From: Escherichia coli
Lineage (GTDB): Bacteria > Pseudomonadota > Gammaproteobacteria > Enterobacterales > Enterobacteriaceae
Strand: one strand, 5' to 3'
DNA: 64,000 nt
Assembly: GCF_003790525.1 (NCBI RefSeq)
Contig: NZ_CP033635.1
This document shows, in pieces, positions 11,679 to 53,990 of this stretch. A program made the position numbers and the translations under genes. The notes below the pieces were generated by a model, which had not been told where the DNA came from, searched no databases, and saw only the letters and a program-made list of their open reading frames with translations. Numbering within the stretch: position 1 is the first letter of the stretch; every line of letters starts with the position of its first letter.

Positions 11679-12047
11679 GACCGGGACTCCCAATGCTTAA
11701 AATATCGGACAGTTCGGTGGGCACACAGAAACAAATTGGGTTTCAGACCATTAAACAGCCTGACTCAGCGCGACGGGAAAAATTGAGGTCGCTGACAACC
11801 GCTAAGGCTATCAGCAAAAAGGGATAGCCTTAGGAGTTGATCCTGGATGACAGGATAGTGAGCCAGTATCTACTGGGTGTGTCCAAGGCGAATGTCCTCT
11901 TAGAGTGATCGTGCGCGCATGTTACGCCAGCAAAATTTTGCCGTCAACACGCAACAGAACACCACAGAACAATAGTTGAACTTCGCGCTTTTTGGTACTC
12001 GTCAAGGTCGCTAACAGGATAAAAAAATCCCACATCCAGGACCTATA

Positions 12048-27377: not shown

Positions 27378-27584
27378 AAAAAAACGCCTGCTCTTATTAC
27401 GGAGCAGGCGTTAAAACAGGTCTGTATGACAACAAGTGGGTGCTTCACTCAACGTTGTGTCCATGGTGTCTGATGAGGCATAAGCGACATCTGTCAGTGG
27501 ACGATAAGCACCGTAAACGGCTCTGCGTCATTCCGGAGTTTATGAGGCACTAAGGCGAACATAAGAGATGGAATGAGCATCTAC
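27378..27584 (-). ncRNA. glmZ: Small RNA GlmZ (activator of glmS translation)
   Basis: Minus strand begins GTAGATGCTCATTCCATCTCTTATGTTCGCC and ends with the hairpin AACGCCTGCTCCGTAATAAGAGCAGGCGTTTTTTT, matching the GlmZ sequence as I recall it; located between hemY and aslA. Confidence 0.85.
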
Positions 27585-31188: not shown

Positions 31189-31265
31189 TGGTCGGCGAGA
31201 GAGGATTCGAACCTCCGACCCACTGGTCCCAAACCAGTTGCGCTACCAAGCTGCGCTACTCGCCG
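31189..31265 (-). tRNA. proM: tRNA-Pro (anticodon UGG)
   Basis: Minus strand CGGCGAGTAGCGCAGCTTGGTAGCGCAACTGGTTTGGGACCAGTGGGTCGGAGGTTCGAATCCTCTCTCGCCGACCA; cloverleaf with anticodon TGG and encoded CCA. Confidence 0.95.
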
Positions 31266-31307
31266 AAATACTGCTTTTTGAATTTTTAGTTCAATTCTTT
31301 AAAGTCG

Positions 31308-31394
31308 TGGTGCGAGGGGGGGGACTTGAACCCCCACGTCCGTAAGGACACTAACACCTGAAGCTAGCGCGTCTACCAATTCCGCCACCTTCGC
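31308..31394 (-). tRNA. leuT: tRNA-Leu (anticodon CAG)
   Basis: Minus strand GCGAAGGTGGCGGAATTGGTAGACGCGCTAGCTTCAGGTGTTAG...CTCGCACCA; long variable arm, anticodon CAG. Confidence 0.95.
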
Positions 31395-31414
31395 ATTGTC
31401 ACAACTTCTAATAA

Positions 31415-31491
31415 TGGGGTGGCTAATGGGATTCGAACCCACGACAACTGGAATCACAATCCAGGGCTCTACCAACTGAGCTATAGCCACC
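31415..31491 (-). tRNA. hisR: tRNA-His (anticodon GUG)
   Basis: Minus strand GGTGGCTATAGCTCAGTTGGTAGAGCCCTGGATTGTGATTCCAG...GCCACCCCA; includes the extra 5' G typical of tRNA-His. Confidence 0.95.
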
Positions 31492-31548
31492 ACTACAAAT
31501 CTTGTTACGCGGTATTACTACCACCGCAGCTCAAGCGCCGGGACTAAA

Positions 31549-31625
<77 letters not shown>

Positions 31626-46323: not shown

Positions 46324-47583
46324 TTATGAGCGTTTCATCATTTCGAAGAAATCGTCATTGGTCTTGGTCATTGCCAGTTTATTAATGAGGAATTCCATTG
46401 CATCGATTTCGCCCATCGGGTGAATGATTTTGCGCAGGATCCACATTTTCTGCAGTTCTTCCTGAGTCGTGAGCAGCTCTTCTTTACGGGTACCGGAACG
46501 GTTGTAGTCGATAGCCGGGAAGACGCGTTTTTCAGCGATCTTACGAGAGAGGTGCAGTTCCATGTTGCCTGTACCTTTAAACTCTTCGTAGATAACTTCG
46601 TCCATCTTGGAACCGGTATCGATAAGCGCGGTAGCGATGATGGTCAGGCTGCCGCCCTCTTCCACGTTACGCGCCGCACCAAAGAAGCGTTTCGGACGAT
46701 GCAGAGCATTGGCATCCACACCACCGGTCAACACTTTACCTGACGCCGGAACAACGGTGTTGTAAGCGCGCGCCAGACGAGTGATGGAGTCGAGCAGAAT
46801 GATAACGTCTTTCTTGTGCTCAACCAGGCGTTTGGCCTTCTCGATCACCATTTCCGCAACCTGAACGTGGCGAGATGCGGGTTCGTCAAAGGTAGAAGCA
46901 ACAACTTCACCTTTAACCAGACGCTGCATCTCGGTGACTTCTTCCGGACGTTCGTCGATCAGCAGAACCATCAGTACGCAATCCGGGTGGTTGTAAGCAA
47001 TGCTCTGAGCAATGTTCTGCAGCAGCATGGTTTTACCGGCTTTCGGCGGTGCCACAATCAGACCACGCTGACCACGACCGATAGGTGATGCCAGATCCAG
47101 TACGCGAGCGGTTAAATCTTCCGTAGAACCGTTACCACGTTCCATACGCAGACGAGAGTTTGCGTGCAGCGGGGTTAAGTTCTCAAAGAGGATTTTGTTG
47201 CGGGCGTTTTCAGGTTTGTCGAAGTTAACTTCGTTAACTTTCAGCAGCGCAAAATAGCGTTCACCTTCTTTCGGCGGGCGAATCTTACCAGAGATGGTAT
47301 CACCAGTGCGGAGGTTGAAACGGCGGATTTGGCTAGGGGAAACGTAGATGTCATCAGGACCGGCGAGGTAGGAGCTGTCTGCGGAACGGAGGAAACCAAA
47401 TCCATCCTGCAATATCTCCAGTACGCCATCACCAAAGATATCTTCGCCACTCTTTGCGTGCTGCTTCAGGATGGCAAAAATAATGTCCTGCTTACGCATA
47501 CGAGCCAGGTTTTCCAGCCCCATATTTTCGCCGAGAGTGATCAGCTCAGAAACCGGCGTATTCTTTAATTCGGTAAGATTCAT
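46324..47583 (-). CDS. rho: Transcription termination factor Rho
   Basis: ORF 46324..47655 trimmed to [25 protein letters not shown] (419 aa); Walker A PPKAGKT. Confidence 0.95.
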
Positions 47584-47667
47584 AGTGGTGTGAGTTCTTA
47601 AACTTGGGGTAAATCTCGAACTTAATGTTGTGAATGGTATGGCAGGATCATCCATGCCTGTTTACGG

Positions 47668-47769
47668 TCATCGACTCATGTCTTTTCGCTGTCTGGTCAC
47701 AGGAGAGTACGCAGAACTGAAACGACAAGACGGATTGAGTGACGAGCCAGAAATCTGTTCACTTCGCAT
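47668..47769 (-). CDS. rhoL: rho operon leader peptide
   Basis: 33-codon minus-strand ORF ATGCGAAGTGAACAG... translating to MRSEQISGSSLNPSCRFSSAYSPVTRQRKDMSR, upstream of rho; too short for the ORF track. Confidence 0.8.
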   Translation of the reverse strand: MRSEQISGSSLNPSCRFSSAYSPVTRQRKDMSR

Positions 47770-47909
47770 TTAAGATAAAACGGGAAGCGTTGGAAATTAC
47801 AAGATTCAAACTTAATAAGGTATGTTTAATACGAAGTCAACACTAAGTTAGCATGACTCACGCCGGGCGTCCAGTTTTTAGCGACGGGGCACCCGAACAT
47901 GAAATTCCC

Positions 47910-48239
47910 TTACGCCAGGTTAGCGTCGAGGAACTCTTTCAACTGACCTTTAGACAGTGCGCCCACTTTGGTTGCCGCCACTTCACCGTTTTTGAACAGC
48001 AGCAGAGTCGGGATACCACGGATGCCATATTTCGGCGCAGTGCCAGGGTTTTGATCGATGTTCAGTTTTGCAACGGTCAGTTTGCCCTGATATTCGTCAG
48101 CGATTTCATCCAGAATCGGGGCGATCATTTTGCACGGACCGCACCACTCTGCCCAGAAATCAACGAGGATCGCCCCGTCCGCTTTGAGTACATCCGTGTC
48201 AAAACTGTCGTCAGTCAGGTGAATAATTTTATCGCTCAT
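47910..48239 (-). CDS. trxA: Thioredoxin 1
   Basis: ORF trimmed to [37 protein letters not shown] (109 aa, active site CGPC). Confidence 0.95.
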
Positions 48240-48369
48240 ATATAACTCCACAGGAATAAGCCTGGCGTGTTGGTTTCGTTGTTGGTGTAACATTAACCAA
48301 CTAAAGGTTGACTTTATTTCACCGGATACGCTTTCGTAAAGCAATAGTAAGCTGATATTCTACCACACT

Positions 48370-53540: not shown

Positions 53541-53990
53541 GTGGCGATTAATTTCAGCCCCAAGGTTGGTGAAATACTGGAATGCAACTTTGGTAACTAT
53601 CCTGTTAGCCAGAATGGACAGTTCAGCACGACGTATTACGATGGCCGCATTCCACCTGAGATGATAAAAAATAGGTTGGTTGTCGTGCTCAACGGAAAAA
53701 TTAATGGCAACGCATGTATCGTCGTTCCATTATCAACCACTCGCGACCATGACAAGTTAAATCGTGGAATGCATGTTGAAATAGCCAGTAATGTTATCAA
53801 TGACCTGCAATTCTTTGATCAGCAGATACGTTGGGCTAAAGCCGACCTGGTACAACAAGTCAGTCGAAATCGATTAAACAGAGCAAGGACTTATCGGGGG
53901 TATCTTAATCAATGTTTGCCACATGAGTTGGTTGCAGACATACAGAGGGCAGTCATCAAGTCAATCAATGCCATATCGCTCATAAATTGA
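53541..53990 (+). CDS. yifN: PemK/MazF-like toxin-family protein YifN (apparently intact)
   Basis: GTG at 53541 preceded by aaggagag (53525..53532); the translation has MazF/PemK-like motif spacing (VGEILECNF, RLVVVLNG, ACIVVPLSTT). The 163-aa track ORF from 53499 is an alternative start. Confidence 0.6.
   Translation: MAINFSPKVGEILECNFGNYPVSQNGQFSTTYYDGRIPPEMIKNRLVVVLNGKINGNACIVVPLSTTRDHDKLNRGMHVEIASNVINDLQFFDQQIRWAKADLVQQVSRNRLNRARTYRGYLNQCLPHELVADIQRAVIKSINAISLIN

Follow-up and report, generated by a model that had tools for sequence, protein, structure and literature searches.

Three annotated small open reading frames in the rho and ilv leaders of an Escherichia coli genome segment, with rhoL most likely an Escherichia-specific frame within a conserved RNA

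Described leader systems and the segment analyzed

Rho-dependent attenuators controlled by an upstream open reading frame (uORF), such as those of tnaC, speFL, mgtL and toiL (the topAI uORF), combine a long leader with a short open reading frame (ORF) located upstream of, or overlapping, a putative rut site, and the same arrangement is seen upstream of rho in Escherichia coli, where the ORF rhoL is annotated. The rho leader has itself been described as an autogenous attenuator (Matsumoto et al., 1986), subject in Salmonella to antitermination by the small RNA SraL (Silva et al., 2019), and the DNA studied here shares with that system the trxA-rho locus, the long 5′ leader and a pyrimidine-rich stretch. 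According to PMC12121999, which cites Matsumoto 1986 and Bastet 2017, Rho terminates transcription prematurely within the leader and early rho, and in chromatin immunoprecipitation (ChIP) RNA polymerase (RNAP) drops 12-fold, in a Rho-dependent manner, between the rhoL region and rho. The other closely related system is the ilvGMEDA (ilvL) attenuator of Enterobacteriaceae, in which readthrough is established to respond to the supply of charged tRNA (Lawther and Hatfield, 1980); the ilv leader examined here is without any difference from that system, having the identical peptide, the Leu/Val/Ile-rich control region and the protector, antiterminator and terminator elements, and standing directly upstream of ilvX-ilvG. 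Finally, E. coli small proteins found through models of the ribosome-binding site and tagging, IlvX and YsgD among them, have in common a length below 20 aa, a strong Shine-Dalgarno (SD) sequence and a location in the 5′ region of a larger gene, and ilvX is itself a member of this group.

The window, by which we mean the whole stretch of 64,000 nt that was analyzed, differs from E. coli SMS-3-5 (NC_010498.1, 4229647-4293646) at 3 of 64,000 positions, the segment being in reverse orientation, and its rho-leader and ilv-leader regions are 100% identical to those of SMS-3-5 and many other strains. The original prediction held that three short minus-strand ORFs, one in the rho leader and two in the region of the ilv attenuator, translate exactly to the known peptides RhoL (33 aa), IlvL (32 aa) and IlvX (16 aa). 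Both the translations and the locations are as claimed, and the RefSeq coding sequences (CDSs) of SMS-3-5, when mapped onto the window, fall on identical coordinates for all three ORFs. That they had been missed by an ORF track is true of the track used for that prediction, whereas public annotation carries all three: rhoL, ilvL and ilvX are annotated across about 5,400 complete E. coli genomes, and the rhoL annotation is present in every E. coli genome sampled over the identity range. The three ORFs and the ilv attenuator are previously known, standard features of RefSeq and EcoCyc, and there is nothing new among them. Note also that ORF length by itself is within the range of chance for rhoL and ilvL, as 38% of dinucleotide shuffles of the 326-nt trxA-rho spacer hold an ATG-initiated ORF of at least 33 aa and 71% of those of the ilv upstream region hold one of at least 32 aa; chance does not account for the exact match to annotated peptides or, in ilvL, for the composition. 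Taken jointly, these are very probably three annotated E. coli small ORFs in two classical regulatory leaders, of which ilvL encodes the attenuator peptide, ilvX is a genuine ORF and rhoL is most likely an Escherichia-specific ORF in a conserved non-coding RNA.

The window also holds an annotated micro-ORF that was absent from the earlier list, ysgD (11830..11886, minus strand), which begins with TTG, encodes 18 aa (LDTPSRYWLTILSSRINS, WP_211180520.1) and lies about 150 nt upstream of corA; Weaver et al. (2019) detected YsgD, among other proteins, by tagging. Also on the minus strand are the GlmZ sRNA (27378..27584), a cluster of four tRNAs in the order Arg-His-Leu-Pro (31192..31625) and, between ppiC and rep at about 53541..53990, a gene annotated in SMS-3-5 as a PemK/MazF-family type II toxin (WP_000996698.1, 149 aa), next to which the SMS-3-5 annotation table lists no antitoxin CDS. 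We take the feature at this position in K-12 to be the yifN pseudogene.

The ilv attenuator and ilvX

The ilv region of the window comprises the following features.

63537..63439, minus strand: ilvL, 32 aa, MTALLRVISLVVISVVVIIIPPCGAALGRGKA (RefSeq WP_001311244.1)
63319..63608, minus strand: match of Rfam RF02744 (Rev39_5p_UTR) over the ilv leader (cmscan 159.6 bits, gathering score 88)
63414..63383, minus strand: intrinsic terminator of the ilv attenuator, a G+C-rich hairpin (63414-63391) followed by T8 (63390-63383)
63406..63472, minus strand: predicted antiterminator, GUGCGGGG (63472-63465, ilvL codons 22-25) pairing with CCCCGCAC (63413-63406, the 5′ arm of the terminator)
63352..63302, minus strand: ilvX, 16 aa, between the attenuator and ilvG (RefSeq WP_001387183.1)

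The identification of ilvL as the leader peptide gene of an attenuator is fully supported by its composition, by the terminator and antiterminator and by the family models. IlvL scores 81.9 bits against the NCBIfam equivalog NF007744 (cut-off 59) and 61.5 bits against Pfam PF08046 (cut-off 25), and Leu, Val and Ile account for 15 of its 32 residues (4 Leu, 6 Val and 5 Ile, or 47%), which places it at the top of the 378 small ORFs in the window; its SD is weak (-0.9 kcal/mol against the anti-SD). The attenuator hairpin and its T8 had been placed at 63374..63407, which is wrong, since this interval is shifted by about 8 nt in the 3′ direction, loses the 5′ arm and folds no better than its shuffles (z = +0.34). 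In the correct interval the stem is formed by 63414-63409 with 63396-63391 and by 63407-63405 with 63400-63398, closed by a GAAA loop (CCCCCG-C-ACC-GAAA-GGU-C-CGGGGG, then U8). The core of the terminator folds at -17.2 kcal/mol with an ensemble frequency of 94% (z = -2.8), and with the flanking A-U pairs the value becomes -21.6 kcal/mol (z = -4.2). A consensus promoter/terminator scan of the minus strand did not detect the ilv attenuator, whose stem contains an internal C/C mismatch.

When the transcript is truncated before the 3′ arm of the terminator (63482..63404), the antiterminator is predicted as 8 bp that close a structure of -28.5 kcal/mol, and in the full-length free leader GGGGCUG (codons 24-25) is predicted to pair upstream with CAGCCCU (codons 2-4), giving the protector, with the terminator downstream. 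Equilibrium folding of the full leader with ribosome masks always yields the terminator, and the role of the antiterminator therefore rests on a kinetic, co-transcriptional argument. In its computed anatomy the ilv leader is a classical three-state attenuator, for which we adopt the kinetic order of the established model. When charged Leu, Val or Ile tRNAs are scarce, the ribosome would stall in the Leu/Val/Ile-rich codons of ilvL and disrupt the protector, so that GUGCGGGG could pair with the terminator's 5′ arm (63413-63406); if the antiterminator forms first, RNA polymerase would read through. When charged tRNAs are plentiful, the hairpin at 63414-63391 with its T8 would form and transcription would stop. 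We also would like to mention that Term-seq 3′ ends fall within ilvL near window position 63459 (K-12 3950400 and 3950406; ORF position 78-84), just 3′ of the protector hairpin and not at the T8; they were scored as not Rho-dependent (0.60), and they are possibly products of processing or pausing.

The SD of ilvX, GAGGAG, lies 7 nt upstream of the start and, at -8.1 kcal/mol against the anti-SD, is the strongest among the starts examined. At the other end of the ORF, the stop codon TAA is followed by CT and then by the ilvG ATG (63299), which leaves a gap of 2 nt, and the ilvG SD (GGGGA) is inside ilvX. Relatives were fetched by exact IlvL match, which provided ten contigs encoding identical IlvL, three of them 83-85% identical over the region, so that the comparison of ilv leaders reaches only to about 83% identity. 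All three divergent relatives keep the 16-codon frame, the SD and the stop/start junction with ilvG, with no indels; the start is GTG in one or two of them and otherwise ATG, and the core -IKFCFSRF- is kept. Gene callers and PGAP call ilvX in 8 of the ten sampled contigs. The kept frame, the SD and the junction support the earlier listing of ilvX as a real small gene, and from its sequence context we consider it a genuine short ORF. With its strong SD, and ending 2 nt from the start codon of ilvG, it is probably translated, and coupling to the initiation of ilvG is possible.

It is conceivable, if somewhat unlikely, that ilvX is instead a conserved part of the ilvG translation-initiation region and not a functional protein, the frame persisting only through constraint on the RNA. 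None of the three divergent relatives departs from the central nucleotides AAAATTCTGTTTCTC, even at third positions, the peptide is without known function and the ilvG SD sits within its ORF; moreover, as the divergent set consists of three sequences, coding constraint on ilvX is inseparable from constraint at the RNA level. Against such an explanation speak a GAGGAG that is strong, conserved and correctly spaced, and the retention of both the start (ATG or GTG) and the stop without any indels. Tagged IlvX is said to have been detected by Hemm et al. in 2008. Our preferred reading of ilvX remains that of a genuine, probably translated short ORF. Downstream of it, ilvG (from 63299 downward, minus strand) is annotated in this strain as intact, encoding the 548-aa large subunit of acetolactate synthase II. 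The ilvGMEDA operon thus differs here from that of K-12, whose ilvG we take to be frameshifted, so that the present strain would presumably be of the valine-resistant type.

Conservation and RNA features of the rho leader

The span 47584..47909 is exactly the trxA-rho intergenic spacer, flanked by the end of the trxA stop codon at 47910 and by the rho ATG at 47583. The features discussed below are these.

47873..47845, minus strand: candidate rho sigma-70 promoter read from the sequence, -35 TGGACG (47873-47868), 17-nt spacer, -10 TAACTT (47850-47845)
47840-47835 and 47817-47812, minus strand: -35 (TTGACT) and -10 (TATTAA) of a second, less conserved sigma-70 candidate, likewise read from the sequence
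47584..47838, minus strand: rho 5′ leader, a non-coding regulatory RNA, delimited by alignments, with a 5′ limit inferred from the candidate promoter
47769..47668, minus strand: rhoL, 33 codons and TGA, MRSEQISGSSLNPSCRFSSAYSPVTRQRKDMSR, annotated as "rho operon leader peptide RhoL" (RefSeq WP_001295255.1)
47666..47748, minus strand: candidate conserved imperfect hairpin enclosing most of rhoL (RNAalifold, 22 pairs)
about 47701..47745, minus strand: candidate rut site, pyrimidine-rich and G-poor (C 33%, G 15% and 10 YC dimers per 40 nt over 47740-47701 in a composition scan)
47584..47663, minus strand: block with the deepest conservation in the leader, AACAGGCATGGAT...GCCATACCATTCAC...GTTCGAGATTTACCCC...AAGAAC, all of it downstream of the rhoL stop

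For the comparison, at least 120 loci were collected through a degenerate pattern on the rho start region, in a sample without Salmonella or named Klebsiella species. The trxA-rho spacers were extracted and 29 Enterobacteriaceae leaders, 27 of them from outside Escherichia, were aligned. The motif CTGGACGCCCG is conserved in 28 of the 29, Pluralibacter gergoviae having CTGGACGCTTG, and TAAnTT is found in most. The TGGACG/TAACTT candidate predicts a transcription start near 47838 and thus a leader of 255 nt, which we take to agree with the published leader length. Neither promoter candidate was detected by the consensus scan of the minus strand, as their -10 elements fail its rule. On the trxA side, the mRNA 3′ end mapped by Term-seq (K-12 3966142) corresponds to window position 47858, just after a hairpin (CGGGTG...CGCCCG; 47858..47897, minus strand) that has no U-tract and whose 3′ arm (CTGGACGCCCG) overlaps the candidate -35 of the rho promoter; upstream of trxA, Rfam RF02773 ("TrxA 5′ UTR thermometer") matches at 48210..48309 on the minus strand (78.8 bits, gathering score 58).

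Conservation of the leader does not follow the limits of rhoL: it starts about 24 nt past the rhoL ATG and is strongest after the rhoL stop. Across the 27 non-Escherichia leaders, mean identity to E. coli is 0.83 at 47745-47668 and 0.89 at 47667-47584, both above the 0.74 found at the third codon positions of rho in the same set. Just upstream of rhoL (47805-47770) the value falls to 0.47, and conservation is also poor over the ORF's first 24 nt (47769-47746). The last 80 nt or so (47663-47584; AACAGGCATGGAT...GCCATACCATTCAC...GTTCGAGATTTACCCCGAGTTTAAGAACCCACCAYTATG) are deeply conserved across 55 Enterobacterales leaders, being almost invariant in Enterobacteriaceae, Erwiniaceae, Yersiniaceae, Pectobacteriaceae, Hafniaceae and Sodalis-like symbionts, far above the level of synonymous sites; no Rfam family matches them at the gathering threshold. 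An in-frame ATG at 47655 (47655..47583, minus strand) lies in this block, 24 codons upstream of the rho start and without an intervening stop in E. coli. As the start of an N-terminal extension of Rho it was rejected, since 1-nt indels break the frame in other genera, where short ORFs result, and since it has no SD; the block is therefore conserved as RNA and not as an extension of Rho.

The pyrimidine-rich stretch is a candidate rut site in view of the known properties of such sites, and it forms much of the 5′ half of the predicted hairpin, in which a pyrimidine-rich 5′ half pairs with a purine-rich 3′ half through three helices (47748-47741 with 47672-47666, 47729-47720 with 47683-47675 and 47717-47712 with 47695-47688). 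In the 27-sequence alignment 96.1% of the cells in the proposed pairs form standard pairs, a share that drops to 34-50% after sliding of the partners, and four pairs have double-sided changes. The covariation score of 0.194 is above that of all 500 of 500 shuffles, with the caveat that this alignment also served to predict the structure, in which G-U pairs are numerous. This support for a conserved hairpin, which is a prediction made here, is suggestive only; such a hairpin would explain the conservation of the leader at the nucleotide level. K-12 differs in this region at a single position (47692, A vs G); the change is silent in the rhoL frame and does not disturb the predicted pair (U-A vs U-G).

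Published data also place an RNA 3′ end in this region. A Term-seq end at K-12 3966322, for which no Rho score is reported (PMC7815308 supplement), corresponds to window position 47678 on the minus strand, Term-seq ends having been placed on the window through their printed flanking sequence. It lies inside rhoL, in the 3′ arm of the second predicted helix and 95 nt upstream of the rho ATG. The consensus scan found no intrinsic terminator in 47400-48350, a scan that also missed the ilv attenuator. As in the autogenous rho leader described in the literature, both the published 3′ end and the reduced RNAP occupancy downstream depend on this region. The trxA-rho spacer would act as the autoregulatory leader of rho, an RNA-level element in which Rho terminates transcription prematurely.

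rhoL in the conserved leader

The original prediction regarded rhoL as a leader peptide gene. The database name agrees with this, and RhoL scores 95.2 bits against its NCBIfam equivalog NF007433 (cut-off 85), whereas the comparative evidence disagrees, the ORF being unpreserved outside Escherichia, devoid of an SD and of a length that chance can provide. At the aligned start position ATG occurs in one of the 27 leaders from other Enterobacteriaceae, where it is followed by a stop at codon 4, and in nearly all 27 the frame is broken by indels of 1-2 nt in either direction or by in-frame stops. An ATG-initiated uORF runs across the conserved block in only 10 of the 29 leaders, and these use all three frames and varying starts. 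Already in E. albertii the peptide has two amino-acid changes and an earlier stop, vs one synonymous change. Variation within E. coli is of no use for judging selection on rhoL, because identity reaches at least 99% in 5,379 of 5,425 genomes. The rarity of the ATG and the broken frames, despite a leader identity (0.83-0.89) above that of rho third codon positions (0.74), argue that rhoL is not a conserved CDS. No SD for rhoL was found (+1.2 kcal/mol against the anti-SD, the median for random ATGs in the window being -2.1), which is not decisive, because the SDs of ilvL and of rho itself (-1.4 kcal/mol) are weak too.

That rhoL is a bona fide regulatory uORF, whose translation controls the access of Rho to the rut site of the leader in the manner of tnaC or speFL and so tunes rho expression, is in our view unlikely. 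Such a role would fit its database name and equivalog model, its place among the leader peptides in EcoCyc and the fact that the ORF spans both the pyrimidine-rich stretch and the mapped 3′ end. Ribosome profiling with retapamulin (Ribo-RET) gives a start-site density of at least 5 RPM at rhoL, induced at least 3-fold in low Mg2+ (PMC11429745), and deletion of rhoL transiently lowers RpoS-dependent reporter activity (PMC11188689), although the deletion also removes leader RNA. On the other hand, none of the 27 other Enterobacteriaceae, which have the conserved leader RNA and presumably the same rho autoregulation, carries an intact rhoL, and besides the missing SD and the divergence in E. albertii, reviews of Rho regulation explain the control of rho by attenuation in the leader and, for Salmonella, by SraL, which masks a putative rut site, leaving rhoL unmentioned. 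In tnaC, speFL, mgtL and toiL the ORF itself is conserved and contains functionally critical codons, whereas rhoL lacks conservation as an ORF and has no known sensing residue or stalling motif. Given the Ribo-RET signal, translation of rhoL in E. coli K-12 is plausible, and the ORF could serve there as a species-specific uORF.

As judged from the sequence comparisons, rhoL is best read as an ORF that is most likely specific to Escherichia, may be translated and lies inside an RNA attenuator that is itself conserved. On this view it is a lineage-specific frame in conserved non-coding RNA rather than the gene of a conserved regulatory peptide. In E. coli, ribosomes may still start translation on it, which could modulate the access of Rho to the leader. 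The label "leader peptide" implies a mechanism like that of tnaC or trpL, which the comparative data do not support. On balance we lean towards seeing "rho operon leader peptide" as a historical misnomer, rhoL having arisen inside a hairpin conserved in Enterobacteriaceae; the conserved functional unit would be this hairpin together with the 3′ 80 nt conserved order-wide, and any translation of rhoL a recent, lineage-specific overlay, perhaps linking rho expression to Mg2+ or to translation status.

For annotation this calls for caution, as thousands of genomes carry the name "rho operon leader peptide RhoL" through the NCBI pipeline on account of an ORF that finds no support as a conserved coding gene in the sequence comparisons. 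Upstream of rho, the gene of a global regulator, it is the RNA sequence and probably its structure that are conserved, and this is relevant to how the levels of Rho are set.
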